Positions 16,256 to 64,000 of a stretch of 64,000 nt of DNA are shown here, piece after piece (the stretch's first letter is position 1; each line of letters opens with the position of its first letter). The position numbers and the translations under genes are program-made. The stretch is from Naegleria gruberi (taxonomy: Eukaryota): assembly GCA_000004985.1 (NCBI GenBank), contig GG738928.1; one strand, written 5' to 3'. Below the pieces are notes generated by a model. It was not told the origin of the DNA. It made no database searches and saw only the letters and a list, made by a program, of their open reading frames with translations.

Positions 16256-19200
16256 ATGGCAAATCCAGCCAAATTAAAAAAAATGCGAACTTTATTATCT
16301 TTCGTAATCTTGCTCTATTTATTCACTATTGTGGTCACAGGTGAGGTGAAATCCATTCAGCAACAACAGCAACGAGAATCCTCATTCACTTTCTTCCTGG
16401 ATTCTTATCAAGGAACGGAAACAAATGTTTCATGTCTTGATGAATCCATTCCATGTGTTTACATGTCTCAAGTTATAGACTCGGCACGATCAATATTACA
16501 GCTGGGAAACAATTCCTCAACATTATCTTTAGAGATGAATATTCTAGTAAGAGGAGAAGTAATTGACTGCGATATTCTAATTGACTTTACTAATTTTACA
16601 TCAAATTTTAAATTGAATATTGTTGGGTGGGATGATGACGACTATTTCCTATCATCATGTTATCCTTTTCTACATGTAAATAGTAAAATAGATGAGTTGA
16701 CCATTGTAAAGGGGTATTCAATTCGAATAATAATTGTATTTAATTATGAAATGAAGAATTTATCCATTTCTAAATGTAAAGGAAGTCTTACTATTCAAAC
16801 TTCAATTGAAAATGCAAACATCTTGGAAAGCGAATTTAATTCATTAGAAATTACAAGTCAGATTCAAAATCTTGTTATACTAAACGATTCGATTACTTAC
16901 TTACAAGGAAATTTGAAAGCTAAACAAGTGAAAATGGAAACTATTAATATTTCCAATTTTAAATTAGTGGAAATTAAGAATTGTCATTGGAGTTCATTCT
17001 CAGGGACAAGTTTATTTCATGGCGGAGAGAAATTCTCAATTCTTTCAAGTATTATTACAGGCCCAATGATGTTTGAAGTTGTGAGTGTTTTGGAAATAAT
17101 CAACGTCACTGTTAGCAGGGTTAATTTTGAGCCAGAGAATGGAAATTTTTTTGGAATAGCCACAGTTGACCAAGTGACAATTGAAAGATGTAATTTTGTG
17201 GATAATACTATTGGTGGAAGTATGATTTCAGTACAACGTTGTAAAAATTTACTTATTGTTAATTGTAAACATTCCAATAATTTATCCAAGTTTATTACAA
17301 TCCTGTCATCTAGTAGGAATCGAATTACAATTCAAGATTCTGAATTTTTCAATAATCAGGCAAGTGATGCCTTAATTGTTTTTGATTCCAATTATGTTGT
17401 AGATAGCACTATATTACTATTAGATAATTGTAATTTTGTGAATAATATTGGAGGATTGACTGGATCCGCTCTGAAAATAACTAAAGCTAATGTTCTCATT
17501 TCGAGTTGTAACTTTTCATTTAATAAGGCAGGTTATGGAGGAGCTGTCTATATGATAAGTCAACTTTCTACTGTTATCGAATATTCAAATTTCACTAACA
17601 ATGAAGCAACTCAATCAGGCGGTGCAATTTATGTGGGAGATGTTTCAAATCTACGACAATGGGAAACAGTAGAAACAATTTGTGATTCTAATAACGCATT
17701 GGAAGCTGGAGGATGTTTATATATGAAAGGTAAATCAAAGATTGATGTGGTGTATAATTTTGCTGGAATCAATAAGGCAATTTGTTATGGTAACAATATT
17801 GCTACAGAACTCACAAAAAAGAAGTTTGAATTTAGACTCAATGGATTCGAATATCAATTGATTACCAATCAGAGTATTCAAATTTATCCAGGAGAATCCC
17901 TGGATTTGAGAATTATATTATCAGATAGATACAATCAGAAAAGTGTAATGCTTCCTGAAAATCAAATGTCTATGAAAATCAATTCTAATAATTTAGTTTT
18001 ACAAACACAAGGTTTTACAAGCGGAAATGATAGCATACTTTCGAATAATATTCAAATACTTCTTAAAGAATATCAATATGCCAACTTCCATGAAGAAACA
18101 ACTTTTTCATTCATATTGAAAGATATCGAACATTCGATTAGAATGAAATTGGTTGATTGTCCACCAGGATATACCATTTCTAAAAATTATGGAAATGTCA
18201 AATGTGAATACATTCCAATAGAAATCATTCTTCCAGCTGCTATTGTTGGTGCTATTTCCTTAATTATTATATTTGTGACTGTAATTTTGGTGGGAATTTA
18301 TATTGTTAAAAAACTCAAAAAATTGAGAAGACAAGAAAGAGCAGAAAAGGAAATTCAAAAGAAATTTATTGATAATTCTTTTGTTTTCAATAATGGCAGC
18401 AATGGTTCAGATTTGAGTGTTCCACTGGTTGAAAAATCTTTCAACTCTGAGGATTCTATTCGATACACTATTCCAATTGCAGAAATTGATATATTATCTA
18501 AAATTGGAGAAGGATCTAACGGATTAGTATATAAAGCAAAGTGGAACAGGACAGATGTTGCCATAAAACAATTGAAAACTTTAGGAGAAGAGGATGATGA
18601 AGAGTTTGAAAGAGAAGCTCTTTTAATGAGCTCATTAAGACATCCGTCAGTTGTTAGTTGCTACGGAGTTTCAATAACCAACGACAGCAAGTATATGGTT
18701 GTAAGTACTTACTTTTGAGAAATAATTTGAATTTATTGTATATTAGGTGGAATACTTGGAAAATGGAAGTCTTGAGAAGGCACTCTACAAGTCTAAAATT
18801 GGAAAAGAAAAATTGTCATTCGAAACTAAATTGAATATTCTCTTGGATGTTGGAAAGGGTATGACCTATCTCCATTCGATAAGACCTAACAAGATTATTC
18901 ATAGGTAAGTTTAGTTTCTATTTACTTTGGAGAGTTAACAATTTTCAGAGATTTGAAACCGGGAAATATTTTGCTTACCAAAAATTTAAATGCCAAAGTG
19001 AGTGACTTTGGGCTCAGTAAGATGGTTTCGAATAATACAGCCACAATGACCACAAATGTTGGAACCTTATTATACATTGTAAGTTTTTCACAATATTCCA
19101 TTTAACTAATTTAGCAATTTCCATCTTTAGGCACCAGTAAGTTTTAACAACAAATTAATCATTGATTTATTATTTAATATTTTAGGAATTATTATCTAAT

Positions 19201-29149: not shown

Positions 29150-31427
29150 ATGCCTTTAAATGCATCGAATGTATCCAACAGAAGTAAGGATGATGTGATC
29201 ATCGAGGATGGGTATACAGCATCTTCATCGTTATCGTCATCCTCATTATCGTTATTAAGGGCAGGTGATAGTAAAAGCTGCAGTAGCTGTTCAATAGAAG
29301 CAGCAACTCCATGGAAACAAGATACATCCTCATCATCAACATCAGATGACTTCATAATTCCTATTCGGAATGGTAGGAGCAACTCTCGCCAATTCATAAA
29401 AACACCATCCTTTTCATCCCTTTCAACAATAATAGATTCTTCACTTCCATCAACGCCTAAATCATTGCCTTCATCACCATCATCATTACAAAATCATCAA
29501 GAAGGAACAGAACCACCTCTTACTGATACTCTCCTAGTTAAATCGATGAGCGAATGTAAGAATGACATGGAGAGGGGCATGTTGAACATGTTGGCTGATA
29601 AGAAGAATCTTCAGAGATTGGTCGGAATTCTCTTCATCTTTGCCACTCTACAAAGTGTTCAACAAATGACACTCTATGAAAATTTATTGAATATTGCCTT
29701 TTTCCTTGTTCAGTGCCTTAATAATTATTTAAGACAAACTAATAATGATACAGCTCTCACCTATGAGGAATCATTCAAACATTTGGATAAAAGAGAAATT
29801 ATAAGAACTGTTTTTTCAATGGTCATGTACACTTTGAGAATGATGTATCTTCCCAAACACAAGATGATTTTCCTTCCAGTGCTTTTTATTTGGTTTGCAG
29901 GAGCTAACAAACTATATATCTACTCTACATTTTGGGGATTACTACCCACTTACTATGCTTCAGTGATGTATATATCGTTGGCTTGCTATTTTGGATTTTA
30001 TGAATTGTTAGAGAATGGGTACACTGAGACATTTCTAAATTTAATGATGGATTACTTTATTTTGGTGGCTGTGGTGTGGATGTGGACATATTATCTGGTT
30101 AATGTAACTGGATTCTTGAAACACAAAGTGGACAAACTGAAGGAAACAAGGAAACGTTTGGAAAGTGCTTTGGAAGCACGAAGTAGATTCATTGCACATG
30201 TGAGTCATGAATTCCGTTGTCCAATCATGTCCAGCATTGGGTGTTTAGAATTGTTGAAAGAAACTCCTCTGAATGAGAAACAAAATGATCTCGTAGATAC
30301 AATAGTTTCATCGAATAGTGTCATTCTTCTATTGATTGAAGACATTTTACAAATTGTTAAAATTGAACATGAAAGTAAGGGTGCAAAGAAGGAAGATACA
30401 AATATTCAACCTTTCAATATTTTCGAATCATTGAAATCGCTGAAAGGAATAATTTCTGGTTATGCTTCGAATTTTAAGGTTAAGCTTAATTTGGAAATTG
30501 ATGAAGGAATTAAGAACTTGACAGTTTTATCAAATCCTTCAAAGATCCATCAAATACTTTCTAATTTGCTGACGAATGCAGTGAAAGCATCAAAGAAAGA
30601 TGATGATGTTTGGCTTAAATGCAATATTTTGGAAAAGAAAGATGATGAAACTGTAAAGATTAGATTTACTTGTCAAGATTTTGGATGTGGAATTCCTCCT
30701 AATTTGTTGGAATCTATATTTGAACCCTTTGTACAATTGCAAAATAATTCACAATCAAAAGTACCTAGCTCTGGGCTAGGATTGACTACAGTATCTCATT
30801 TAATCAAGACATTGAATGGAACTATTAACGTTGAATCACAGGTTGGAATAGGAAGCTCATTTACAGTTGACTTGGCTTTTAAAATTGTTCCAAACGAGGT
30901 AAAATATAAAGTTCAAGAAAATGTTGTTGTAGAAGAAAAGAGATCGAAACTACACTTGAACGTTCACAAGAATTACTTGAACCTGATGTCACATTTAGAA
31001 GAAGGTGAAAAGGAAATGGAAGAAACTCCAAAATTCAATTCCAATGTTTTGATAGCTGAAGATAATCCAATCAATAGAAAAGTTATTGTAAAGATGATTA
31101 ATAGTATGGGAAGTGAAACTGATTTTGTTTGTGATGGAAAGGAATTGGTTGAAAAGTTTAATCCAAGCACTCACAAAGTTGTATTTACTGATATGGTAGG
31201 TAGCTCAAATTTCGTTTTTTAAGGTCTAATAACAATAATAGAATATGCCAAATATGAACGGATTAGAAGCAGCCAAGAAATTAAGAGAAAAATTTGGAAA
31301 TACTTTCAGGATTTATCTCTTGACAGGAAATGTCACAATTTCATTATCTGATGAAATTGGTGTGTTTGATGGAGTGTTAACTAAACCTTGTTCTAAACAG
31401 GATTTGAAAAAATGTTTGGAAAATTAG
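29150..31427 (+). CDS. Hybrid sensor histidine kinase. Domain order: Ser-rich N-terminus, polytopic membrane region, HisKA, HATPase_c, receiver. Two exons (29150..31195, 31242..31427); the 46-nt intron splits the receiver domain.
   Basis: H-box HVSHEFRCPIMSSIGCLELL. N/G boxes (LSNLLTNAVKAS; DFGCGIPP; GLGLTTVSHLIKTLNGT). Receiver motifs IAEDNPINRKV... and VVFTDM|NMPNMNGLEAAKKLRE span the GTAGGT...ATAG intron. Confidence 0.8.
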
Positions 31428-32147
31428 AAATTAGGATCCAACCTGTTGCTAAATAGTTTTAGATTTTCACAGTCTGTTTCATCCAATGCTGAACTGTACT
31501 ACGTAGTCACAATTCGACAGCCCTGATATTTCAAACTGATACTAAATGGATGTTTAACATCATGAGATAATTAATATAATAAATAATCCAAATAAAATTG
31601 AAATTGAAAAAGTGGAATATAATAATAATAATTTAATACTTTATATTAATATTTGTATTGAAGTACACAACTTGTGGACATTATCGAAATCATAAGTAAA
31701 TCTTCCACTTTCCAAATTAAAAGTTGTCTGCTAACTTCTTGAAACCAATCTATTGATGTTAATAGTGACTATAATCAATTACCACAGAACTTTCGTTTAC
31801 AATTTTCTATGGATTGTTGTTGATAACATGTTCTATTAATTGGTAAAAAGTTTTGTTGTATGTGATATTTGTAACATTTCAATTATTAATTTTGGACGGG
31901 AAGCCTGCCAGGAATATGGCGACTATCCCGCTACTTTGACTGTATGAACAGTGAAGGCAAGAGTTCTGGACGAATCTTGTTGTGTTCAAATAACAGGTTG
32001 TTGAAGAATTAAACAGGTTTGATCACCCCCTATTTATTGAACATTCGACATGTTGAATTACTTGATGCAAATTTTGGTTTGATAATTTTAGATCAAATCG
32101 AAATTGAAACTTCTGATTTTATTTACAATATTATATCGATTTGGTAT

Positions 32148-36181: not shown

Positions 36182-36473
36182 TAATTCATCGAGCCTTCTT
36201 TGCACAAAGGAATATCAACACCACAAACATAGCTTAGCATAGCAGACAAAGAGGCTTTGACAGAGTTGTGGATTCTTTGCCATCACCCTTGACTAGACAT
36301 GGTACAAGAAAACATTTTGCACAACATTGGAATGCCCTTTGAAATGAATTATCATAACATACACACCATTAATACCTTACTGCCCTCTTATTGTGACAGG
36401 TCCATTTATCTATTGTTTATTGTCACAGCACAGTATGAGGACACAGTAATGAATTAACATCTTCTTTTAAAAA

Positions 36474-39400
36474 ATGCCTCAAGATAGAAGGGCCAACCTC
36501 TTGCTCTTGATTATCACAGTTATTTTGTGTTTCGCAGCAACGGCCGACTTGTCTAAGGGAATTTTAACGGAGGCAGAATATCAAACCTACATCTCCAATT
36601 CATGCCCTTCTAAGCCTCTCTCCACTGATGCTTGGTACTCTGAGGAAAGTAACTTGATAAATATTATTCTTGCGGGTGATAATTCAAAGCTTCCTCTGAT
36701 CTACCCTCAGGAGTATTCGACGAATAACACTATTGTAAGGGATGATATTCTCAATACAACTACAACAAGCAACTCTTCACCAGCAACAACAATATTACAA
36801 TCAGGAAACAATACAACAGTGAACAACTCCTCCTCAACAAGCAACACAACTATTACCATTATTCAAGGGTGGGATGATCTTCTCAAAGTTCTTAATGAGA
36901 CTTTGAAACCCAACGCTACCCTCGCTGATAACTCAACAAGTGGAAATAATAGTTCTCTAGGATCGAATGGTTCAATCATTTTTAATTCCACCAATTCACA
37001 AACAACTACTAATGGAAATGTACCTCTGTTGAATACTACCCTTAACTCAACCACAAACTCTAGCCCTTCTGTTGGAACAAATACAACAAATACTCAGTTA
37101 TCCTCCAATACAACCCCTAGTGTTATTTCGAATAGTACTGGTACAGCTTCGACAATCAATTCCACTAATGCTAACCTGAACACAGTGAATGGAACAAGCG
37201 GAAGTACAGAAATTGGTTCGACCTATGGATCCAACAGCACTTCTGGTCAAGGTAATAGCACAACCACGAACACGCCATTTGGTTCTAACTCTAATTCCAT
37301 AGGATCAACAATAGTAACTAACGGAACTGTTGCAGCCGGTGCAATTTCTAGTTCAACAGTAACCTCAAACGGTGGGTATGTTGGCTCCAATACCTCTGGT
37401 TCAATAAGCACAACTTCAACTGGATCTAATAGCCAAGGATTAGGATCTAGCTCCTCCACAAATGTCTCTGCTAATAATACTGCAACTGTTAGTGGACCTT
37501 CAAGTGGATTTAATTCTACTTCTGGGGCAACTTCTGGGGCAAACAACGGTTCCGTTACAACAAGTACTGGAACAAATGGTCAATCAACTACTGGAACAAG
37601 CTTAGGATCGACCTCCTCTAATGGTTCAAACAGTGGTTCAACTAATGGAACAAATACAGGTTCCGTTTCCACAAGTACTGGAACAAGTGGTTCCTCTTCA
37701 AGTGTTTCAACAAACTCAGGATCAACAAGCTCTTCTAACTCTGGTTCAACTAATGGAGCAAACACCGGATCAATTGGCGTTTCTAACTCTGGATCTTCTA
37801 TTGGAACAAATACTGGTTCTGGTTCAACAATCACTGGAACCAGTTCAGGTTCTTCAACTAGTTCTAACACCAATACAGGAAACAATAATGTCTCCAATTC
37901 TGGATTAAATGGTCAAGGAACAAATTCTACTTCAAGCTCCTCAGCTACTAACATTTCAGGTTCAAATAATACTGGATCAAGTAATCAAGGAAGTAATTCA
38001 GGATCCAGTTCTACTGGAACAAGTAGCACTTCAAGTACTGGATTAAATGGTAGCGTTTCTTCAGGTGGTTCTAACACTGGAACAAATGGAGTATCAAATA
38101 ATGGATCAGCAACTGGCATTGCTCCCAATGTCTCTGGAACAAGTGGTAGTTCCTCTTCAAGTGTTTCAAACACTGTCTCCTCAAACTCAGGTTCGAGTGC
38201 TAATAATACTTCAACTGTTAGTGGACCTTCAGCAGGATCTAATTCTACTTCTGGAACAACTTCTGGAGCAAACAGCGGTTCCGTTACAACAAGTACTGGA
38301 ACAAACGGTCAATCAAATTCTGGAGCTAGCTCAGGATCTACCTCCTCTGGCTCTTCAAGTGGTTCGAACAGTGGTCCTGGCTCTAATACTGGTACAAGTG
38401 ATACTAATACAGGGTCAACAAGCTCTTCTAACTCTGGTTCTTCGAGTGGAGCAAGTACTGGTTCAGGTTCTTCAACAAATTCTAACACTAATCCAGGAAA
38501 CAACAATGTCTCCAATTCTGGATTAAATGGTCAAGGAACAAATTCTGCTTTAGGCTCCTCAGCTACTAACATTTCAGGAGCAAGTAATACTGGACAAGTT
38601 CTACATCTCAAGCTCTGGATTAAGTAATTCAGGATCCAGTTCTACTGGATCAAGTAGCACTTCAAGTACTGGATTAAATGGTGGCTCTTCTACAGGTGGT
38701 TCTAACACTGGAACAAATGGAGTATCAAATAATGGATCAGCAACTGGCATTGCTCCCAATGTCTCTGGAACAAGTGGTAGTTCCTCTTCAAGTGTTTCAA
38801 ACACTGTCTCCGCAAGCTCAGGTTCGAGTGCTAATACTTCAACTGTTAGTGGACCTTCAGCAGGATCTAATTCTACTTCTGGAACAACTTCTGGAGCAAA
38901 CAGCGGTTCCGTTACAACAAGTACTGGAACAAACGGTCAATCAAATTCTGGAGCTAGCTCAGGATCTACCTCCTTTGGCTCTTCAAGTGGTTCTACCAAT
39001 GCTGGACCCAATTCTAGTAGTAATTCAACGGTCAGTGGTGGTTCTTCAAATGCATCTGGTTTTACAAGTACTGGACCGAATACTCAAGGTGGTTCATTAT
39101 CTGACTCCTCAAATACTGGAACTGCTAGCACTCCAAGTGCTGGATTAAGTAGTGGATCTTCTTCAGGTGGTTCTAACACTGGGACAAATGGAGCATCAAA
39201 TAATGTTTCTGGAACAAATGGTGGTTCATCTTCTAGTGTAACAAACAGTGGTTCTGGTTCTAATACTGGTATTAATACTGGAACAATTGGCGTTTCTAAC
39301 TCTGGATCTTCTATAGGAACTGGGGTAAATACTGGTGCTGGAGCAAGTTCAGGATCTTCAACAAATTCTAACATCAATACAGGAACCAATAGTGTCTCCA

Positions 39401-42130
39401 ATTCTGGATTAAATGGTCAAGGAACAAATTCTACTTCAAGCTCCTCAGCTACTAACATTTCAGGTTCAAGTTATACTGGTACAGGAGGTACTACCTCTTC
39501 AAGTTCTGGATTAAGTGGTGGTTCTTCGTCAGGTAATGCTATTACTGGATCAACAACTGGCAACACTGCAAATGTCTATGGAGGAAATGGTGTTATCAAT
39601 ACAGGATCAACCAGCACTGGAGCAAATACTGGTTTACCAAGCACAGGACCTTCAACTACTCAATCACTGGAACAATTGGTGTTATCAATTCAGGATCAAC
39701 GAGCTCTTCTAACTCTGGATCTTCGCCTGGAGCAAATACTGGTTCTGGTACAACAATCACTGGAACTAGTTCAGGATCTTCAACAAATTCTAACACTAAT
39801 ACAGGAACCAATAGTGTATCAGGTTCAAATACTAGTGGCTCTATCACAAGCCCATCCACTGTATCCACTAGCTCTTCTAACATTGGAACAAATACTGGTT
39901 CCGGTTCGAGTAATACTGGAACTTCTAGTAATGGATCAATTGTTTCAAATAGTGGCTCCACAAGTACTGAAACTACTAGCACCCCAAATACTGGATTAAA
40001 TGGTGGTTTTTATTCAGGTGGTTCCAACACTGGAACAAATGGAGTATCAAATAATGAATCAACAACTGGTATCACTACAAATGTTTCTGGAACAATTGGG
40101 GGTTCATCTTCTAGTGTATCAAATAGTGGTTCTGGTTCTAATACTGGTATTAATACTGGAACAATTGGCGCTTCTAACTCTGGATCTTCTATTGGAACAA
40201 ATAATGGTTCTGGTTCAACAATCACTGGAACCAGTTCAGGATCTTCAACTAGTTCTAACATCAATACAGGAAACAATAATGTCTCCAATTCTGGATTAAA
40301 TGGTCAAGGAACAAATTCTACTTCAAGCTCTTCAGCTACTAACATTTCGGGTTCAAGTAATACTGGTACAGGAGGTACTACCTCTTCAAGTTCTGGATTA
40401 AGTGGTGGTTCTTCTTCTGGTGGTTCTAACACTGGAACAACTGAATCAACAATTGGCAACACTGCAAATGTCTATGGAGGAAATGGTGTTATCAATACAG
40501 GATCAACCATTTCTGGAACAAACACTGGTTTACCAAGCACAGGAGCATCAACTACTTCAACAGGCAATCCTGGTTCTGGTTCAGCAAACACTGGAACCAC
40601 TTCAAACGGTTCTACCAATACAGGTACCACAATTAATAGTGGTTCAGGATCTACCAATACAGGTACCACAATTAATAGTGGTTCAGTATCTGGTTCTTCA
40701 ACAGGTTTAAACAACTCTGGTTCTTCAACAAATAACAGTAGCTCAACAATTTCTACCACAACAAACCCAGCCACTTCCAGTGGTTCAGGATCTTCAACAA
40801 ATTCTAACACTAATACAGGAAACAATAATGTCTCCAATTCTGGATCAAATGGTCAAGGAACAAATTCTGCTTCAAGCTCTTCAGCTACTAACATTTCAGG
40901 TTCAAATACTAGTGGTTCAAGCTCATCTTCTGGTTCTTCTAACACTGGAGCAAATACTGGATTAACAAGCACAGGACCATCCAATACTCCAACCAATAAT
41001 GGGGGTTCCTCTAATTCTGGGTCAAGCTCTAGTGGAACTAGTGGTTCAACTTCAGTTATTTTTGGAGCAACAAGCTCCTCCAATCCTAACTCTGGCTCTA
41101 ATACTGGTACAAGTGGTGATACCAATACAGGATCAACGAGCTCTTCTAACTCTGGATCTTCGACTGGGGCAAATACTGCTTCAAGCAATGCTGGATCAGG
41201 TACAAACAATGGAAACAATGGATCAACAAGTTCAAATAGCAATTCAACAAGTTATAGTGCTCTTGATACTCTTCGTAAAGAAATAGAACGATTAGTTACA
41301 GATATTATTGGGCGACCTGATCCAAACCTGCCAACACCAGATCTTCAAAAAGGAATAGACACACTTAAAAATGACATTCTTGGTGTCAAACCTGCCTCAC
41401 CGACTACTACTAGTCTACCACCAACTCAACAAACTCTAACAGCTCAATTAACAACTCACCAACATCAAACAATAATGTTACAAAACCTTCTAACAATACA
41501 AACACAACCACAACCCTTAACGCCTCAAAAAGCACAACCCCAACAAGGAACTCAACCACTACTTCGACTAGTGTATCAACCACAACAACCGATAGTACTT
41601 CCAATGCTATTCAGTCAAGTAATAGAAACAACAATGCTGGAAGTCCAATCAGATGTAAACAGAAATGTCCTGTTAGGTATGAACAGAAAGTGTGTATAAC
41701 CAAAAGAAAAACCAGTAGTTCTTCTTCTGTTGTTGCATCCAATATTGTTGCAGTCATGGCAGAGAACATTGCCACCATTAAGAATGGATCACCTGATGGG
41801 TTAATAATTGGTTTATCTGTTGCAGGAGGTGTGTTAGCAATTCTGTGTTGTACAGGATCGTCTATCATTGGATGTGTTCTGTACGCTAAGAGAAAGAGAA
41901 ATAATTTCTGGAATCTTTATGAAGATAAAAATGTCAGAATGCTTATGGAGGGTCACATTGATGAAAGTGCATATGCAGATGTTGAATTAGAGGATGATGA
42001 AGAATTTGATCCACTAGAAGCAAAATCTTCTTACTCTGGCTCTAATGAAGATGATTTCAAGTTTGACGAAGAATCAGAAGAATCTTCAGAATCAGATAAA
42101 CAAGAAGAAGAAATTGAATTTGAATATTAA
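36474..42130 (+). CDS. Giant mucin-like type I membrane protein. Domain order: signal peptide, ~1800 aa Ser/Thr/Gly/Asn-rich region built from higher-order tandem repeats, TM helix, acidic cytoplasmic tail. The reading frame breaks at about 38595, 39655 and 41400-41460 (indels or unrecognised introns).
   Basis: Signal peptide MPQDRRANLLLLIITVILCFAATA. The conserved block aattctggattaaatggtcaaggaacaaattct...gctactaacatttcagg recurs at about 37893, 38514, 39393, 40283 and 40833. The terminal segment 41690..42130 encodes the TM (GLIIGLSVAGGVLAILCCTGSSIIGCVLYA) and a D/E-rich tail in a frame that connects back through S/T/N-rich sequence. Confidence 0.5.
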
Positions 42131-42253: not shown

Positions 42254-43567
42254 ATGTACAACAATAATAATAATTCATCCTTCTACTCTTCGGGTACAGG
42301 ATTTGTACCACCAACTCAGGGTTATTCCTATCAACAACCTCCTCCTATCAATACACAACCTCCTATCAATAATATGAATTCATCTTTTTCCAATCTTCCA
42401 AAAACATCCTATTATTCAGGTACAACAACAACAACAACAGCAGATCAAGCACAAAGAATTAGACAATTACAAGCTGATTCTATAATTAAAAGATTTCATA
42501 ATGCTAAAATTGTTTCTACATTAGATAATAATGTACTTGATGTTCCTATTACATTAAAGAATGGACAACAAATTACTTTCCGTGTTTTAATGCAACAAGC
42601 CTTCCCACAACAACCACCTCTAATTACTACTCTCTGTACAATTAAACATGCAAATGTTGATTTAAGTGGTTACGTTGTTCATCCACAATTAAGACAATGG
42701 ACTCAACAATCAAGTCTTGGAGATGTTTTGACAATAGTTTTTAGAGATTTTATCAACACTCCTCCAAACTATATTTCTGATGAATTACCAAAGAATCATA
42801 TCACAAAAACAACAGCAAATATTGGTATGATTACTCCTCCAATCGGATCTACTCCTCCTCCTGGTTTAAATCAAACATCTCCATTGATGTTTAATCAACC
42901 TCCAATTAATCAACCTCCAATGACAAGTTCAACTTATCCTCCAAATAATACAATTCCATCCATGACAAATCCAATGACTAATTCAATGACAAGTACTGTC
43001 CCAACAAATACTCAACCAACTTTCCAAGATTCCTCTTGTATGATTCCTTTACCAAATATTCCAACAAACTTTTCTGAAATTTCTTTACTTGAAGGAGTTG
43101 ATGCCGTTCAAAAATTACTTGATAGTGAAGAATTATTCAAGCAGTTTATTGAAAACTTATCATTTACAAGAGAAGCAAAGAATATTTATCAAGATTTGAG
43201 AAATGCCAATATGGATATTGCCAAGAGAAGTGTAGAAAAAGATGAACAAATCAATAACACTCTCAAAGAACAAATTACTCAAAAAAAGGCAGAAGTTGAC
43301 AGACTTTTGGATCAAGTTCAATTTTTACAAAATAAGCAACAACAACTTTCTCAAAGATATGCACCAACTCAATTATTAATTATGTTAAATGAAAAGATTG
43401 ATGAAGTTGACAATGAAAGTGAACAAGTAGGAGATTTGTTCCTTGATAGTCCAACAGCTGAACCACATCAAGTGAAAGAATTTATTGACAAGTATTTGGA
43501 AAAGAGAACACTTTATTACTTGAGAAGACAAAAACGTGATCGTTTCAAGGATACCTATATTAAATAA
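42254..43567 (+). CDS. ESCRT-I subunit Vps37-like (Mod(r) domain) with an N-terminal UEV-like domain and Q/N/P-rich linker
   Basis: The C-terminus has coiled coils and ...EFIDKYLEKRTLYYLRRQKRDRF, matching the Vps37 Mod(r) end motif (FLE.FLEKR...HLRR...EKL). The N-terminal beta-rich domain (ITFRVLMQQAFPQQPPLITTLCTIKH) resembles the UEV fold. ATG at 42254; the track start is TTG. Confidence 0.55.
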   Translation: MYNNNNNSSFYSSGTGFVPPTQGYSYQQPPPINTQPPINNMNSSFSNLPKTSYYSGTTTTTTADQAQRIRQLQADSIIKRFHNAKIVSTLDNNVLDVPITLKNGQQITFRVLMQQAFPQQPPLITTLCTIKHANVDLSGYVVHPQLRQWTQQSSLGDVLTIVFRDFINTPPNYISDELPKNHITKTTANIGMITPPIGSTPPPGLNQTSPLMFNQPPINQPPMTSSTYPPNNTIPSMTNPMTNSMTSTVPTNTQPTFQDSSCMIPLPNIPTNFSEISLLEGVDAVQKLLDSEELFKQFIENLSFTREAKNIYQDLRNANMDIAKRSVEKDEQINNTLKEQITQKKAEVDRLLDQVQFLQNKQQQLSQRYAPTQLLIMLNEKIDEVDNESEQVGDLFLDSPTAEPHQVKEFIDKYLEKRTLYYLRRQKRDRFKDTYIK

Positions 43568-43754: not shown

Positions 43755-44906
43755 TTAAAGAGTGAATCCAAGATTCTTTTGAATGTCAGCAACATTCCAG
43801 AACAAAACTTTGCCGTCCAAACCAGCGGTAACAAACTTGCTAACCTTACCACCTTCAACCTTGAAAGCTTCAATACAGTTAATAACATTGTGGTGACGAG
43901 TTTGTGGAGCATCGCTCTTTTCAGCATTTTGAGAACCAACAGTTGAAGTAGCTTGGAATTTTAAGAAAGCACTTCTGACACCAACACCTTGAGCCGCACC
44001 AGTCTTCTTCATTTCATCACAAGATCCCTTCAAAACCCACTTGTTTCCTTCCAAAGCAAAAGCATATGGAGCAAAATCATAACCAGCAGCAACAAAGACC
44101 TTGTCGGAAAGGAACAAACCACAATAGAATGGTAACTTTTCATGACGAACAACTTGAGATTCAATTGGTTGAGCATCAGCAACAGATTGATCTTGTGAAG
44201 CATAATCAACAAATTGAACAGTAGAATCGTGTCCAATGAAAGCTAACCATTTACCATTTGGTGAGAATTGAACAGAGTGAACCCATCCCTTTGATGTATA
44301 TTCAACAAAGACATCACCAAACTTTAACTTGTTATCGGCACTTCTCTTACCGTCCACTTCCTTGAGGTATGTATTAAAAGTACGAGCTTTCATGTCACTA
44401 CTACCAGTAGCTAATGTGTTAATAGTTGGATGCCAAGCAACAGATTTGATGGTTGATTTGTGTTTCTTAATCATCTTTGAAATGTACCACTTGTTTTCAG
44501 CTTCATAGAAACAAACAGCAATCATCTTGGAAGCACTACCAACAGCAAACTTTTCTTCGTTTGGAGACCACTTACAACAAGTAGCTGCTTTAGTAAGACG
44601 AAGTAAAACAAGTGTTGGATTCCATTTCTTTTCCTTTTCATTATATTCCCATACGTAGGCATTACGATCTTGAGCACAAGATAAAATCTTGTTAGATTTT
44701 GGTGCCCAATCAATACCAGTTACATAGTGGTCATGATCAGTCAATGTATGTTCTCTTTCCCACTTTTCGAAATCTTCACTACCATTAGTCTTATAGATGT
44801 GAATTTCACTGTTTCCTGGCGAGACAGCAACTCTTGATTTATCACCATTCCAAGCCATACAGCTGATAGCTTGAGCGAGGACTTTTTGGGTGTTGAGCAA
44901 GGACAT
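43755..44906 (-). CDS. Arp2/3 complex subunit 1 (ARPC1/p41-ARC), WD40
   Basis: The full length is alignable to ARPC1 (ISCMAWNGDKSRVAV...HDHYVTGIDWAP.SN.I.SC.QDRNAYVW..., the WD repeats and the C-terminal LDGKVLFWNV). ATG at 44906 after a poly-A leader. Confidence 0.85.
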   Translation of the reverse strand: MSLLNTQKVLAQAISCMAWNGDKSRVAVSPGNSEIHIYKTNGSEDFEKWEREHTLTDHDHYVTGIDWAPKSNKILSCAQDRNAYVWEYNEKEKKWNPTLVLLRLTKAATCCKWSPNEEKFAVGSASKMIAVCFYEAENKWYISKMIKKHKSTIKSVAWHPTINTLATGSSDMKARTFNTYLKEVDGKRSADNKLKFGDVFVEYTSKGWVHSVQFSPNGKWLAFIGHDSTVQFVDYASQDQSVADAQPIESQVVRHEKLPFYCGLFLSDKVFVAAGYDFAPYAFALEGNKWVLKGSCDEMKKTGAAQGVGVRSAFLKFQATSTVGSQNAEKSDAPQTRHHNVINCIEAFKVEGGKVSKFVTAGLDGKVLFWNVADIQKNLGFTL

Positions 44907-55368: not shown

Positions 55369-56216
55369 CACCTAAATGGATTAGTAGTTTNTGATATGTT
55401 CAATAAAAATCAAACTTTCTACATTTTTCTTACAATATTAGACTTAATATATGGAATTTGTTAAAAGAAATAATGACTGTTTCAAATAATTGCATTCAAT
55501 ATTAAAATTACAATTGAAGAAATGTAAAATCACAATAAGACATTCACAATTCAAGCTCACCAACAAGTAACATTGTGAAAGTCAAAGAGAGTTGAGTTAC
55601 TAATTTCCCTATTTATAAAGGTGGAAAACAAGGTTTTTAATTGATACTTAGTATCAATTTTGATATAATTTCTCACAAGTTGGAAAATTACAGTTCTATT
55701 CATCTATTTTTCTATTTATGATACTAATATCCGGGAATGATGTATTTAAATTGTTGTACTGAAATTGGCACATAGGGTAGCTTACAATCGCTTGTAAAAC
55801 ATTCCACTCACTCGCAAGCAATTAAAACCAAATGAATCACTTCACAACTTTTTCAAAGAAATCAATTCAAATAAGCTCCATAATTTAAAAAACATCTTTC
55901 CTATGTGAAATTCTCCTACTCCTAGCTCTCATAGGATGAGTTCCAATATTTGGTCAAGTGGTTGTTGTCCTTAGTGAGAAGAAGGTTATTACTAATTTAG
56001 TTTATTGGTTATTGAAATTGTAATTTAACAATATTAAATATAAATATTATGATCTACTAAATCCACTACAAATACCAATTTTAGAATATAATTTCATTGC
56101 TCTAACCAATTATATCCACAACCCTTACATATTGAAATAACAAATATAAACACATTTACACACATGTTAAAATAGTTCAATAATAATTTCATCATGAAAA
56201 ACAATTATAGAACAAA

Positions 56217-56711
56217 TTATTTATTTTTTTTAAATAATTCTAAAATATTTTTAAAATAATAAAAAATTATTAAAATTAAATTTGGTAATAAAGATAATTT
56301 TACAAATATATTATTATTATAAACAGTTAAAAATAATAAATTATAAACATATAAATAACTAATTAAAGTAAATAAACCAATAAATAAATTTAAAATAAAT
56401 TTCTTATTAAAATAAAAAATATAAAATAATAAAATTAAAATTGAAATTATAAAATAAATAAAACTTTCAAGATGAAATTGTCTAACAAGTATTTTATCCA
56501 AACTTGGTAATAATTTTAAATTCATTGGTAATGGTTTTGTAAAATAAATTCCCAAAGTAAAAAATAAACTTGTAAAAAAGTGTAAAATCATGAATAAATA
56601 TTCTTTCATTAATATTTTTGTATTTCCTATTAAAAGATATAAAAATAATGTTAAATATATTAAAATAAATGATGAAAATGTAAATATTGAAAGACTTGTT
56701 ATGGAAAACAT
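56217..56711 (-). CDS. Putative small polytopic membrane protein (164 aa) encoded in an extremely AT-rich block (~10% GC); may be spurious
   Basis: ATG ORF made of very hydrophobic Phe/Leu/Ile/Tyr-rich segments. Composition alone can generate such ORFs. Confidence 0.25.
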   Translation of the reverse strand: MFSITSLSIFTFSSFILIYLTLFLYLLIGNTKILMKEYLFMILHFFTSLFFTLGIYFTKPLPMNLKLLPSLDKILVRQFHLESFIYFIISILILLFYIFYFNKKFILNLFIGLFTLISYLYVYNLLFLTVYNNNIFVKLSLLPNLILIIFYYFKNILELFKKNK

Positions 56712-57124
56712 TTTAAAAGATTATGATAATTATATATTATTAATGATGATGATGGTAATGATGGTATGAATGATATGATAACGATGGTGATGATTGTATT
56801 TTAATACTATAATAATTTAATCAGTGATGAAGTATGATGATTGTATAAATTATCTTTAGAGTCAAAGATGATATGATGTTCCGAATTTTTTTTAATATTA
56901 TTTTCATCAACAATCAAATTTTTCCATTTCATACAACAAACTTGAACCTTAATAATACTACAACAACAACTAGTGGCACAACAATCAAACATTCAATTTG
57001 TAATTCATTCATATTCTATCGATTGATTGATTAATTAATTCATACTATTTTATTATCATTTTACAAATATATACTACTACTACTATATATATATTAACTT
57101 GTTTACCATATATTTCCATTATAA

Positions 57125-58862
57125 TTAAAGATATTCTTGTAAAATAGATGGTTTAAAACGTATAACAATAACCGAAATATTATCAGTACTACCCTTATCA
57201 TAGGCTAATTCACGTAAAGTAATAGAGGCTTGAACAGGATCATTTTCATATCTGACACTTGTTACAACTTCCTCCTCACTAACATAATCCCATAAACCAT
57301 CACAAGCTACAACAATAAATTCATCTCTATCAAACATAAAATCCATAACCATTGTACTTGCATCTGATATAATATAGGGATGAAGTGATTTATCACCAAT
57401 TGCTCTCGTAATTGCTAAACATGCATTAACACGATTACCATATATAGTACCACCTGCATCTTTAACTCTTCTACGTTCATCAATTTCACTTGGTCTATGA
57501 TCAACTGTTAATCTAATAGGTTCACCACTTCTACATAATACAATTCTAGAATCACCTACATTACCAATATAGGCTATTTTTTCATCTATATATGGTATAT
57601 ATATAATTGAGGCTGTACTTCCATCTCTATCATTTCCTTTACATACATTTTCATTAATTTCTAAAAATGTTTCACGTATTAAAAGTGGAATTACTTCACG
57701 TTTTGAAAGTGAATGTAAACAAATTTCATCAATTGATTCTTCTGTTGTTTTTTGTTCTCTTTCTTTATATTTTAAATGTTCTCTCAATTTACATAATAAT
57801 AAATTACTCTTTTCAATAGCTAATTCAATCAATTCTGAATATCTCATTGTATATATTTCTTCTCTTTCTTTTTCATTTAATAATCCATAATAACTTTCTA
57901 TATTTATATTATTTAATATTGAACTTAAATCATATGAATCATTATATCCATTCTTATGAGAATTATTAGAATTATACATATTATGAGAATGATTCATATT
58001 AGAATTATTCATATTAACATCTAAATCTTGTAATAATTTCTTAATATCTAAAAATTGTTCATAAATATTTAATTTTTCCTTAAATAAAACATGTAAATGT
58101 TCAGAAACATATTTAGAAGTATTTGAACCAACATGTCCATCACTTGTTATCTAATTGAGCATAATCATGTTGTCTAAATGTTAATTCACATACAAGTGCA
58201 TCTTCCATTGTTGATCTTCTTCCTTGTTTTTCAGCATAACCTGATAATAACCAATCATTTTCTAATAATTCAGATTGAATAGGTTCAACACGTTGTTGAT
58301 TACCTTTGTTTTTTTGTGCACGTCTATCAGCCTTTCTTTGATTCCTTTGTGAAGCCATTCTTTCTATAGCTTCATAGGTTTGACTACTTGGTGATGATGA
58401 TTGTAATGTTGTATTATTACTACTAATCACTGTTATTGTTTGTGAATGTGTTGTTGTTGTTGGTGATGATGAAGAGGATGAAGAGGATGAAGAGGATGAT
58501 GAAGTAGATGAAGATGATGAGGCTACTGATGATAATGATAGATTTATATTTTTAGGCTTTGTTTTAGGTGAATCATCGGAAATTGTTGGTGAATCAATGA
58601 GTGGTGAATCACTATCCATTAATGATGATGATGAAGAAGAAGATGAATTAGTATCAATAGTTGTAACTGATGGAGAATCATCAGTAATAATAACATTATT
58701 TGGTGATTGATCAAATATTTCCTCATTATTATTCTTGTTATTAACTCCTTCCATTATATTAATAATGAGTGGTGATTTTGCATCGGCAGAATCTTCTATC
58801 AGTTGATTAAAATTTAAATTAATATTATCATTGTTGGGTCCTTTCTTTTTGCTTTCATTCAT
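57125..58862 (-). CDS. Protein phosphatase 2C (PP2C/PPM) with a long Ser-rich N-terminal extension. There is an apparent +1 frame break near 58140 between the ...RRSTMEDA... and DGHVG motifs.
   Basis: The upstream ORF ends ...GYAEKQGRRSTMEDALVCELTFRQHDYAQLDNK*. The downstream ORF, re-translated here in the +1 frame, begins DGHVGSNTSKYVSEHL... and continues through GNVGDSR and DG..D to the stop. The two ORFs are the two halves of one PP2C domain. Confidence 0.65.
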
Positions 58863-61319: not shown

Positions 61320-62552
61320 ATGGCTAAAAAGAAGAATAATAATAAGAATAAGAATTCAGCCTCTTCGGCAACAACACCAGTTTCACCAGTGAGTGAAGTC
61401 AGTGAGGATAATAGTATTGAAGAAACTGTTACATCATCAACAACAATGGAAGAGGAACAAACAGTATCAACAACAACTCAAGAATCTACAATTGATGAAG
61501 CCTCCACAATAACTTCTACCACTGAACAACAAGAAGAAGAAGAAGCCTCTGATAAAATTCAACAACCTGAAGAAGTAAATTCATCATCTACAACAACAGC
61601 CATTGTTACTGAAGGAATACCAACAACTAACACTGTTGAAACATCTGATTCTATTACTACTACTAATACTAATACTACTACTATTGATAATAACATTCCA
61701 ACAAGTAGTACAACAACAACAACAATTGAAGAAGAAGAAGAAAAAACAAATCAAAAAAGTGAAGAAGAAATTATAACAGAAGAAATTGAAAAATTAAAAG
61801 AAGATTTAACTGATCGTGTTAAAGTAGTAAGAGAAGAATTAGAATTACAATATGAAATTGAAATTAAAAAATTACAAATTGATCATCAAGAATCTTTAAA
61901 AAAACAATTAGATTTATATGAAAATAAGATTAATTCACTTGTTGAAACTCATAAATATGAAATTGAACAATTAAATGCTCAATTAAAACAAAAAGATGAA
62001 GAAAATTTAAATGAATTGGAAAATATTAAATTATTAGAAATTAAATTACAAGATCAATTAAATGAAAATAATTCTAAAGATTTAATAATTAATAATTTAA
62101 ATAATAATATTGAAAATTTAAATAATAATATTAATAATTTAAAAAATGAAATTGAAATTAAAAAATCTGAATTAAAAGAAAAAAATGAAAATTCAAATGA
62201 ATTAAATGAAACTATTAAAAAACATTTAGAAAAAATTCAAAATTTAGAAAGAGAAGAATTAAATTCATTACAAAAAATTAATCATTTAAATCAACAATTA
62301 AAAACAACAAGTGAAAAGAATTCTGAATATGAAAATAGAATTTTACAATTAGAAGAAGAATTAAAATCACAAAAAGAAAATGAAACAATTATTTTACATA
62401 AATATTATCATCATGCTTTATTAGCTGTAAAATTAACTTTATCAAATATTAATTTTTCAGTTCCAGATTTGTTAGATGATTGTATTAAAGAACAAGTTAA
62501 AGAAGAAGATTTAGATTCTTGGATTACAAAGAAATTAGAATTACAAAATTAA
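61320..62552 (+). CDS. Coiled-coil protein with a Ser/Thr/Glu-rich N-terminus, 410 aa
   Basis: ATG ORF. Long heptad-rich ELKEK/NNLNN segment. Extreme A/T third-position codon usage. Confidence 0.5.
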   Translation: MAKKKNNNKNKNSASSATTPVSPVSEVSEDNSIEETVTSSTTMEEEQTVSTTTQESTIDEASTITSTTEQQEEEEASDKIQQPEEVNSSSTTTAIVTEGIPTTNTVETSDSITTTNTNTTTIDNNIPTSSTTTTTIEEEEEKTNQKSEEEIITEEIEKLKEDLTDRVKVVREELELQYEIEIKKLQIDHQESLKKQLDLYENKINSLVETHKYEIEQLNAQLKQKDEENLNELENIKLLEIKLQDQLNENNSKDLIINNLNNNIENLNNNINNLKNEIEIKKSELKEKNENSNELNETIKKHLEKIQNLEREELNSLQKINHLNQQLKTTSEKNSEYENRILQLEEELKSQKENETIILHKYYHHALLAVKLTLSNINFSVPDLLDDCIKEQVKEEDLDSWITKKLELQN

Positions 62553-63144
62553 ATATTTTAATATTTATAATTATAAATAAAAAAAAACAATTTAAATTAT
62601 TAAATCATAATGTGTTTTAAATTGTTGTTGATGAAGAAGAATATTTCAAAAGTTTAAATTATTATTAAATAAATTATTAATCAATTTTATCGTTCATTTA
62701 TTTGATCATCAGATTCATAACCAGATAATTGATTTAATTGATTATTATTATTTGGAAGTATAATTTCATTTAAAATTGTATTTAATTGATATTTTAATTC
62801 ATCTTTAAATTGTTGTTGATTTATAATATTTGAATTATTATTTAAATTATTATTTAAATTATTTAATTTAAATTCAATTAAATGATTTAAAATATTTTTT
62901 AAAAAAGCATGATCATTTCCATGTAAAGAAATAAATAAATTATTAAATAATTCTAATAAATTATTATTTAAATCAATATTACTATATATATTAATTAAAG
63001 TACGTAACCATAAATCTAATTCATCTTGAGATGAACAACTCCATTCACTAATTTCACCATTTATAGTTTTAATTTCAAATCTAAATTTTAAATCATTATT
63101 TTCATTTTGTAATCTTTTTATACTTGTTATACTATTTATATCTA

Positions 63145-63990
63145 TTATATTATATTTGGAATTTGAATCATTTCTATAATATAATTTACTTCTTTTAATT
63201 TTAACTTTGGTTTTTTGATATCCAATTCCATTTTTACGTTTTTTAAATAAATTCCTTTTAAATCATATTTAATTATATTTTCATTTTTTTTAAAATTATT
63301 AAAATTATTATTATTTAAATTATTACTATTTATATTATTATTATTTATATTAATAATTGTATTTCTTGTTTGTTGTAAATTATTATCACTAATAGTTTGT
63401 CTATGAGTATTAAATTCATTATTTTTAATTTCCGTAATTGGAGATTGTGGTGATAAATTTTCAATTTTTAAAATTGCATTTGATCTTTTTTTAACTATTT
63501 TTTTATGTTCCTGTATTATCTTGTTATCTACTGCTTCATTTCCTATATTTGTAGATGAAGAAGATGGTGGTGATGAATATTCTTCTTCTTCTTCTTCTTC
63601 TTTTTGATTTAAATTTAAATAACTTGGTAAATTAGATGGAAAACTAGCAGATAAACGTGAATTATTTAAATTATTATTTAAAGATGATGATGATGGTAGT
63701 GATGAATTATTATGAATAACAGAAAGTACTTTTTTAACTTTTCTAATAATAATTGGATTATTACTTGTTGATGTTGATGATGATGTTATTAAATTAGTAT
63801 TAGTATTATTATCTATTGTATCATCATCATCATTATCTAATATTATTGTAGATGATGTTGTTATATTATTAGTATTATTTATATTATCATAATGTTGATT
63901 GTTATTATCATTGTTACTAGAAGAATGAGAATCTGTATGTTCTTCTTCTTCTTGTGTTATTAATTGTCTTGTTGTAATTGTATCATTCAT
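63145..63990 (-). CDS. Asn/Ser-rich low-complexity protein (281 aa); gene possibly incomplete or with further exons
   Basis: ATG at 63990. Poly-N/poly-E tracts; no recognisable domain. Confidence 0.35.
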   Translation of the reverse strand: MNDTITTRQLITQEEEEHTDSHSSSNNDNNNQHYDNINNTNNITTSSTIILDNDDDDTIDNNTNTNLITSSSTSTSNNPIIIRKVKKVLSVIHNNSSLPSSSSLNNNLNNSRLSASFPSNLPSYLNLNQKEEEEEEEYSSPPSSSSTNIGNEAVDNKIIQEHKKIVKKRSNAILKIENLSPQSPITEIKNNEFNTHRQTISDNNLQQTRNTIININNNNINSNNLNNNNFNNFKKNENIIKYDLKGIYLKNVKMELDIKKPKLKLKEVNYIIEMIQIPNII

Positions 63991-64000
63991 TTGTGTGTTT

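Follow-up and report, generated by a model that had tools for sequence, protein, structure and literature searches.

Does a mucin-like reading frame that is repeatedly lost and regained in a deposited sequence belong to one gene and, if it does, are its breaks a property of the organism or of the sequence? The question is raised by positions 36474–42130 of a 64,000-nucleotide stretch of the Naegleria gruberi genome (GenBank assembly GCA_000004985.1, contig GG738928.1), referred to here as the window, where a first-pass annotation made from the sequence alone had proposed a single mucin-like gene interrupted by several frame breaks. We have found that one gene of approximately 5.66 kb spans this interval on the plus strand, that it is the N. 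gruberi member of an uncharacterized family of Naegleria membrane proteins, and that its frame switches three times in the sequence as deposited. As to the cause of the switches, the evidence tilts towards errors of the deposited sequence.

RESULTS

A single gene conserved at both ends

36474–42130, plus strand: whole gene, N. gruberi ortholog of a Naegleria type I transmembrane mucin-like protein (tblastn, synteny, stop-free conceptual translation)

When the N. fowleri protein FDP41_006272 (XP_044559511.1; 583 amino acids, single exon) was compared with the window by tblastn, its N-terminus matched positions 36471–36749 (46% identity, E 3e-18) and its C-terminus positions 41648–42058 (44% identity, E 4e-27), the two matches lying in different frames. 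Since both termini of one protein match the two ends of the interval, 36474 and 42130 are the true ends of one gene, and since the matches differ in frame, a net frame change is real in the deposited sequence. The N. fowleri protein is a syntenic ortholog: on contig VFQX01000051.1 (426011–447168) its gene stands beside those for a VPS37-like (Mod_r) protein and for ARPC1, in the same order and orientation as in N. gruberi. The single mucin-like gene proposed in the first-pass annotation is thus supported by both orthology and synteny.

42254–43567: VPS37-like protein, an exact match to XP_002669340.1 (NAEGRDRAFT_75751) from the same contig
43755–44906, minus strand: ARPC1, identical at 383 of 383 residues to N. 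gruberi XP_002669371.1 (NAEGRDRAFT_82184) and 81% identical to N. fowleri ARPC1

Synteny between N. gruberi and N. fowleri around the locus is limited to this triad. In a 21 kb syntenic locus of Willaertia magna (JBEGDK010000147.1) the VPS37-like and ARPC1 genes are adjacent and no ortholog of the mucin gene was detectable.

A further ortholog is C9374_008402 of N. lovaniensis (XP_044545521.1; 691 amino acids); like that of N. fowleri, it is annotated as an uncharacterized protein. An exhaustive phmmer search of 1.84 billion representative proteins with the C-terminal 163 residues returned six matches, namely the proteins of N. fowleri (E 4e-24) and N. lovaniensis, a complete protein of 384 amino acids and two fragments, all three from metagenomes or ENA, and one ant protein. 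The last of these, matched over short repeated stretches only, looks spurious. Metagenome scans with the family alignment and with a 50-nucleotide repeat core found nothing. Members of the family have in common a signal peptide, an N-terminal module (LTExEYQxYIxNSCPSKPL…KLPLxYP), a low-complexity stalk, a short conserved segment, a cysteine motif (RCxxxCPxRYExxVC), a transmembrane helix, the juxtamembrane sequence YAKRKRxNF(F/W)xxYxxKNxxxL and an acidic tail ending in an aromatic residue (Tyr/Phe). The N. gruberi gene has both terminal modules and the position beside the VPS37-like and ARPC1 genes, and identity to the N. fowleri protein is 41–45% at the N-terminus (alignment A3) and 43% over the C-terminal 163 residues (alignment A4). 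Synteny and every sequence motif therefore place it in the FDP41_006272/C9374_008402 family. The one family feature that fails is the uninterrupted open reading frame (ORF), the termini lying in different frames with three switches between them, and this bears on the integrity of the N. gruberi copy, not on its ancestry. So far the family is known only from Naegleria and from metagenome relatives, with stalks of approximately 200 to approximately 1,600 residues.

Among public N. gruberi proteins none has either conserved end, so that the gene is probably unannotated or wrongly modelled; both of its neighbours have RefSeq entries for N. gruberi. Neither the N-terminal 94 residues, nor the 717-residue first ORF, nor the C-terminal 163 residues are carried by any protein in collections of 5.8 and 15 billion sequences. 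A chimeric query joining the N- and C-termini and the N-terminal 94 residues alone likewise returned nothing from the 5.8-billion-protein index, a result that excludes only an identical or nearly identical N. gruberi model, since the word prefilter missed the true N. fowleri ortholog too.

The reading frame and its three breaks

With F0 defined as the frame set by the ATG at 36474, four overlapping stop-free stretches cover the gene.

36474–38625, plus strand: stop-free stretch in F0
38554–39997, plus strand: stop-free stretch in F1
39537–41697, plus strand: second stop-free stretch in F0
41414–42128, plus strand: stop-free stretch in F2

Translation that stays rich in Ser, Thr, Gly and Asn follows the path F0, F1, F0, F2, and codon usage, scored as log-likelihood per codon after training on 16 other long ORFs in the window, agrees with it: +0.39 per codon in F0 (37000–38590), +0.43 in F1 (38620–39650), +0.41 in F0 (39670–41400) and +0.34 in F2 (41640–42127), the other frames of each segment scoring negative. 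Four single-base restorations give 1,886 codons with no in-frame stop, and a conceptual protein containing 27% Ser, 17% Thr, 15% Gly, 14% Asn and 2.4% Pro, with 81 NxS/T sequons. Left unrestored, translation from the ATG terminates at 38625–38627, giving the first ORF of 717 residues.

The GC content of the gene (0.39–0.42) stands above that of the rest of the window (approximately 0.30); elsewhere in the window it falls to 0.21 (56001–58000) and to 0.17 (62001–64000). ORFs of 60–160 residues, rich in Leu/Glu/Pro/Val or Leu/Gln/Val, overlap the repeats at 37247–41242 on the minus strand and in the alternative plus-strand frames, and it is on ORFs of this kind, of which many of 60–130 residues occur, that one could found the view that the region is non-coding repetitive DNA or an opposite-strand gene, its Ser/Thr frame being a compositional accident. 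That view is refuted by the plus-strand orthology of both ends to a single N. fowleri protein and by codon-usage scores that are positive only in the Ser/Thr frame, and we discount it almost entirely. The alternative-frame ORFs have negative codon-usage scores and are by-products of stop-poor repeat codons.

The breaks are best described against the repeats in which two of them lie. An 85-nucleotide core occurs five times, with pairwise identities of 93–100% (mean 95%).

37876–37960, plus strand: core copy 1, F0
38494–38578, plus strand: core copy 2, F0
39380–39464, plus strand: core copy 3, F1 (shifted)
40267–40351, plus strand: core copy 4, F0
40816–40900, plus strand: core copy 5, F0

Successive cores are separated by 618, 886, 887 and 549 nucleotides, distances which define the repeat units. 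Against these units the three frame breaks are placed as follows.

38594–38617, plus strand: frame break 1, F0 to F1, a mosaic junction
39658–39662, plus strand: frame break 2, F1 to F0, at approximately 39660
41411–41648, plus strand: frame break 3, F0 to F2, somewhere in this interval, the earliest point being 41411–41414

The five copies of the block, the higher-order repeats of 0.55–0.9 kb and the loss and recovery of the Ser/Thr-rich frame were all features of the first-pass annotation and were all recovered here. Its third break, put at 41400–41460, is a genuine switch whose placement has to be widened: F0 and F2 are both open across 41411–41648 and have similar codon-usage scores (0.12 and 0.20), so that the break cannot be placed more finely than that interval.

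At break 1, unit 2 begins like units 3 and 4 and then turns like unit 1. Read in F0, then in F2 for seven codons (TSSTSQA) and then in F1, the sequence yields repeat-like protein; restoration of single bases at 38594 and 38614 repairs it. Compared with units 3 and 4 the junction is a net 5 nucleotides shorter (4 and 1), and compared with unit 1 the differences are −1, +6 and +8 nucleotides. At break 2, which sits exactly where two different repeat modules abut, unit 3 reads ACTACT-CAATC where the paralogous unit 4 reads ACTACTTCAAC, one T being missing. The sequence at break 3 is unique within the window and starts an insert of 75 residues, rich in Ser, Thr and Asn, that has no counterpart in the orthologs. 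Together the three breaks are the equivalent of four single-base losses. Each of the four can be repaired by doubling a single base, which is trivial for any shift of minus one and is no evidence of homopolymer errors.

Introns and recoding as causes of the breaks

Small unrecognized spliceosomal introns had been offered as one cause of the breaks, and were weighed against introns in the window that are anchored by homology. The latter interrupt the receiver domain of a histidine kinase and the kinase domain of a TKL kinase; they are 44–47 nucleotides long, begin GTAGGT or GTAAGT, end YAG and are 72–83% AT. Both kinase genes served to calibrate the intron signals: the hybrid histidine kinase gene (29150–31435, plus strand) has a 46-nucleotide intron inside its receiver domain and the TKL-type kinase gene (16256–19200, plus strand) has several introns of 36–49 nucleotides. 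A scan for elements with a GTRRGT donor, a YAG acceptor, a length of 35–130 nucleotides and at least 68% AT found 26 in the window, several of them exactly at ORF junctions. It found no GTRRGT donor at any of the three breaks, the only donor-like sites of the gene being at 36735 and 37372, far from the breaks.

GT…AG pairs of fitting length and phase do exist at every break, and one of them, 38584–38632 (49 nucleotides, GTAATA…TTCAG), falls in the size class of true introns. Such pairs are plentiful by chance, however, with 21–49 candidates per break; none has a GTAAGT or GTAGGT donor, their AT content is 48–66%, and in the paralogous units the same stretches are read in frame as ordinary coding repeats. 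Each break is itself spanned by repeat-like coding sequence, at approximately 58–64% AT, and the N. fowleri ortholog is intronless. Introns are accordingly left with a very slim chance, and on these features of the sequence the explanation is rejected.

Recoding during expression, by programmed ribosomal frameshifting, transcriptional slippage or RNA editing, would account for the fact that the downstream frames stay open and conserved. The breaks have no slippery heptamer or homopolymer tract, however, the three sites are unlike one another in direction and sequence, and the orthologs need no such event; we know of no precedent for recoding in Naegleria nuclear genes and regard it as barely conceivable here. 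Even when introns, recoding and the non-gene reading are taken together, they are very improbable.

Sequence error or genuine lesion

There are then two principal accounts of the breaks. On the first, towards which we incline with no great confidence, they are consensus or assembly errors, haplotype mosaicism included, in a repeat-rich heterozygous locus of a draft assembly, and the gene of the organism is intact; their source would be a mosaic made up of diverged copies of the repeats or of haplotypes, along with sporadic indel errors in the draft. Breaks 1 and 2 lie at the junctions of repeat modules, the places at which errors are likeliest to enter a consensus drawn from diverged copies or haplotypes. 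Beyond the last break the conserved C-terminus is intact, retains every family motif and is as conserved as the N-terminus that precedes the breaks (43 versus 41–45% identity to N. fowleri). For N. gruberi NEG-M the listed genome assembly is Sanger-based and comprises 40.9 Mb; Naegleria are described as mainly heterozygous diploids (PMC9928731).

The second account, which we consider plausible and the less probable of the two, is that the breaks are real and that the gene is a very recent pseudogene or a truncated allele in the strain or in the assembled haplotype. The product would be a secreted, anchorless N-terminal mucin fragment of 717 residues, the indels would have arisen by repeat-mediated slippage or out-of-register recombination, and selection may possibly have been relaxed or altered in axenic laboratory culture. 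Several independent frame-disrupting events cluster in the mucin gene, and the junctions at breaks 1 and 2 resemble recombination products of diverged modules. Break 3 falls in unique sequence of a Sanger-based assembly, and the absence of a public N. gruberi protein model with either conserved end is in keeping with a broken gene. Weak constraint is compatible, too, with the eight non-synonymous and one synonymous changes that separate the youngest repeat copies. On the other side, the 1,886 codons contain not one in-frame stop, every C-terminal motif is intact below the breaks, and for three or four neutral indels to have accumulated with neither a nonsense change nor the loss of a motif, the events would have to be very recent or very rapid. 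Of the features of a unitary pseudogene, the deposited sequence thus has the frame-disrupting lesions and lacks the downstream decay.

A special form of the second account is that of a contingency-type gene, in which real repeat-mediated indels would switch the product between the anchored mucin of 1,886 residues and the secreted fragment of 717. We consider this unlikely; if true, such switching would mean heritable variation of the surface coat in a heterozygous amoeba or in a line adapting to axenic growth.

Another gene of the window bears on the choice, and also weighs against real lesions.

57128–58862, minus strand: PP2C phosphatase gene in two abutting open frames, with a break at 58143–58152

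The MED and DGH motifs of the conserved domain flank the break. A one-base correction of the frame regains the N-terminal part of the domain and scores 177.6 bits against Pfam PP2C; splicing by way of the only candidate intron (58193–58151; 43 nucleotides, GTATGT…TTAG), the removal of which would delete two core strands, scores 165.6 bits. The PP2C break is probably a single-base assembly error, or else marks a pseudogene, and an apparent single-base frame error in so conserved a gene points to sequence errors in the window.

Several observations nevertheless weigh against the account that we prefer, in which the breaks are errors of the draft. Indel errors are normally rare in a Sanger consensus, yet the 5.66 kb of this gene contain three or four events that disrupt the frame, and the remaining 58 kb of the window has one clear candidate, the PP2C gene, and one ambiguous candidate. 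Break 1 is a complex multi-base difference and not a simple miscall. The sequence at break 3 occurs only once in the window, which excludes repeat collapse as the cause. Of the assembly fault suggested in the first-pass annotation, simple collapse of repeats therefore fails for break 3, and the broader form, errors of assembly or consensus, is the one that we favour over real indels. Nanopore R9 and R10 reads of NEG-M are publicly available (PMC12344493; BioStudies S-BSST1363).

Two other open frames of the window meet head to tail at 62690–63999 on the minus strand; each has at least 150 codons and they overlap by 115 nucleotides. The stretch is extremely AT-rich and rich in Asn and Lys, the downstream frame has a PH domain and the intron candidates are 85–88% AT; the frames may be joined by an intron or by a frame error, either being possible. 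Besides the hybrid histidine kinase and the TKL kinase, the window also codes for an RGS protein, and its genes are compact. These traits and the low GC content are suggestive of an amoeboid protist; a dictyostelid and gp900 of Cryptosporidium, both guesses from composition, were rejected by the ARPC1 match.

Protein architecture

The conceptual protein can be followed from end to end, through the frame switches, as follows.

36474–36548, plus strand: signal peptide of approximately 25 residues with hydrophobic core LLLLIITVILCFAA (hydropathy, AlphaFold2, ortholog alignment)
36558–36758, plus strand: conserved N-terminal module, ILTEAEYQTYISNSCPSKPL…KLPLIYP…DDIL (alignment A3)
36759–37474, plus strand: non-repeated part of the stalk, rich in Ser, Thr and Asn and dense in NxS/T sequons (translation)
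37475–41246, plus strand: higher-order repeat region, coding for Ser/Gly/Thr/Asn-rich sequence (repeat families D1–D9, unit alignments)
41259–41393, plus strand: conserved membrane-proximal segment ALDTLRKEIERLV…PDLQKGIDTLKNDILGVKP, probably helical, in F0 (alignment with orthologs)
41414–41638, plus strand: species-specific insert of approximately 75 residues rich in Ser, Thr and Asn, in F2, between the conserved segment and the cysteine motif
41648–41695, plus strand: juxtamembrane cysteine motif IRCKQKCPVRYEQKVC, in F2; family consensus RCxxxCPxRYExxVC
41798–41884, plus strand: transmembrane helix GLIIGLSVAGGVLAILCCTGSSIIGCVLY (hydropathy, AlphaFold2, orthologs)
41885–42130, plus strand: cytoplasmic tail and stop, AKRKRNNFWNLYEDKNVRMLMEGH followed by an acidic Ser-rich region ending …EFEY

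The signal peptide contains the top Kyte–Doolittle window of the protein (residues 7–27), is predicted by AlphaFold2 to form a helix at residues 3–23 and aligns with the signal peptides of the orthologs; we infer the position of its cleavage site. The N-terminal module is 34–45% identical to those of the N. fowleri, N. lovaniensis and metagenome orthologs and had no match in Pfam or, by profile search, in the PDB; for this module AlphaFold2 predicted two short helices with low confidence. The membrane-proximal segment aligns with NIDQALKQLEQDIKEQIPSNPKPDFKQSLKILLGDIKG of N. fowleri and with the metagenome ortholog, and alignment with the orthologs confirmed that the insert which follows it is absent from them. 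In the cysteine motif the residues R, C, C, P, R, Y, E, V and C are invariant in a three-sequence alignment (A5), and the motif is also visible among six sequences (A4). The transmembrane helix, which coincides with a hydropathy peak at residues 1777–1796 and has a predicted local distance difference test (pLDDT) score of 86, is conserved in the orthologs, as is the tail, so that the membrane anchor and acidic tail described in the first-pass annotation are real. Conserved positions of the tail are YAKRKRxNF, Y, KN, L, D..PL and the terminal Y, and the peptides that it encodes include NNFWNLYEDK and MLMEGHIDESAYADVELEDDEEFDPLEAK.

Over the two conserved ends as wholes, AlphaFold2 gave pLDDT scores of 62.7 and 55.6, with helices only at the signal peptide and transmembrane segment. 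No Pfam family was found in the 1,886-residue conceptual protein (E ≤ 0.01) or in four orthologs (E ≤ 0.1).

Growth of the stalk

The stalk amounts to approximately 1,600 residues in N. gruberi, whereas whole orthologs have 384–691. Self-comparison of the gene, a check proposed with the first-pass annotation, gave 2,124 off-diagonal 30-mers with at most three mismatches, whereas two control stretches, each as long as the gene, gave none. Besides the 85-nucleotide core, further repeat families of 84–236 nucleotides occupy 37475–41246, and units 1 and 2 have approximately 370 nucleotides in common at 97–98% identity; two segments reach that identity at an offset of 628–631 nucleotides. Descent of units 2 and 3 (886 and 887 nucleotides) from a common ancestor of 888 nucleotides was considered and rejected: the units are not collinear, and their likeness in length is coincidental. 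The stalk has grown by duplication, unequal recombination or gene conversion of units of 0.55–0.9 kb that contain the core.

Between the two youngest repeat copies, the changes in codons counted above stay within the class of Ser, Thr, Gly, Asn and Ala, with the exception of one Ser-to-Phe and one Val-to-Ser, a pattern consistent with selection that acts on bulk composition rather than on the exact sequence. The composition of the stalk is dominated by Ser, Thr, Asn and Gln in N. fowleri, by Ser, Pro, Thr and Ala in the metagenome ortholog and by Ser, Gly, Thr and Asn in N. gruberi (residues 96–1600: 30.7% Ser, 18.6% Thr, 18% Gly and 15% Asn). Both the length and the composition of the stalk change quickly between species.

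DISCUSSION

From its predicted topology and composition, the product of this gene is probably a type I membrane glycoprotein with heavy N- and O-glycosylation of the stalk; we infer its glycosylation, surface location and function from sequence. Glycosylated mucin domains extend by approximately 0.25 nm per residue, so that a stalk of 1,600 residues would reach a length of several hundred nanometres. An extended, glycosylated stalk would hold the small N-terminal cap far from the membrane and would add to the glycocalyx. The protein probably acts as a surface mucin, that is, as a barrier or as an anti-adhesive or adhesion-modulating layer. The sequence YAKRKRNNF would be a basic stop-transfer and juxtamembrane motif, followed by the acidic Ser-rich tail with its final Tyr, and this conserved tail would serve in sorting or in cytoskeletal coupling.

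The catalogue of N. gruberi genes gains an apparently unannotated gene of approximately 5.7 kb, and a small protein family is defined. In the brain-eating amoeba N. fowleri the ortholog is a candidate for a major glycoprotein of the cell surface, which makes the family a reasonable target for studies of surface biology or antigens. The locus also flags reference sequence that needs checking, and a second probable single-base frame error of the window lies in the PP2C gene. Current understanding is not overturned by these findings, repeat-expanded membrane mucins with troublesome assemblies being common.

In comparison with its closest relatives, the orthologs of N. fowleri and N. lovaniensis, the N. 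gruberi protein has the same architecture, with 41–46% identity at both ends and, in the case of N. fowleri, the same gene neighbourhood. It differs in a stalk approximately three times longer, made of Ser/Gly/Thr/Asn higher-order repeats which the orthologs lack, in the extra insert of 75 residues before the cysteine motif and in the three frame breaks.

Similarity to any characterized protein was found only in a marginal match of the C-terminal profile (41648–42127) to LYVE-1 in the PDB (residues 190–292, E 1e-3, 21.9 bits). As in LYVE-1 and CD44-type receptors, a membrane-proximal Cys, a transmembrane helix and a basic juxtamembrane segment were matched; unlike LYVE-1, however, the N. gruberi protein has no Link domain, and the borderline score falls in a transmembrane and low-complexity region. 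We take the match, which is probably compositional, as a lead and not as homology.

Canonical mucins are defined by domains rich in Pro, Thr and Ser (PTS), for which the criterion is at least 40% Ser plus Thr, with Pro often above 5% (PMC4948705). At 49% Ser plus Thr the stalk lies above this criterion. In contrast to canonical PTS mucins, Pro makes up only 2.4% of the protein and falls outside the eight most frequent residues of the stalk, which is instead rich in Gly and Asn and accompanied by 81 N-glycosylation sequons in the protein, and no SEA, VWD, EGF, NIDO-AMOP or other Pfam domain was found in the N. gruberi protein. Membrane-tethered mucins that offer a comparison are the MUC1-type proteins of animals, Msb2 and Hkr1 of yeast and gp900 of Cryptosporidium. 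With these the N. gruberi protein has in common a type I topology, a long, repetitive and presumably glycosylated Ser/Thr-rich ectodomain, a single transmembrane helix, a short cytoplasmic tail and fast evolution of repeat number, yet it has no sequence homology to the mucins of animals, fungi or apicomplexans. The gene is an extreme member of a lineage-specific kind of membrane mucin.

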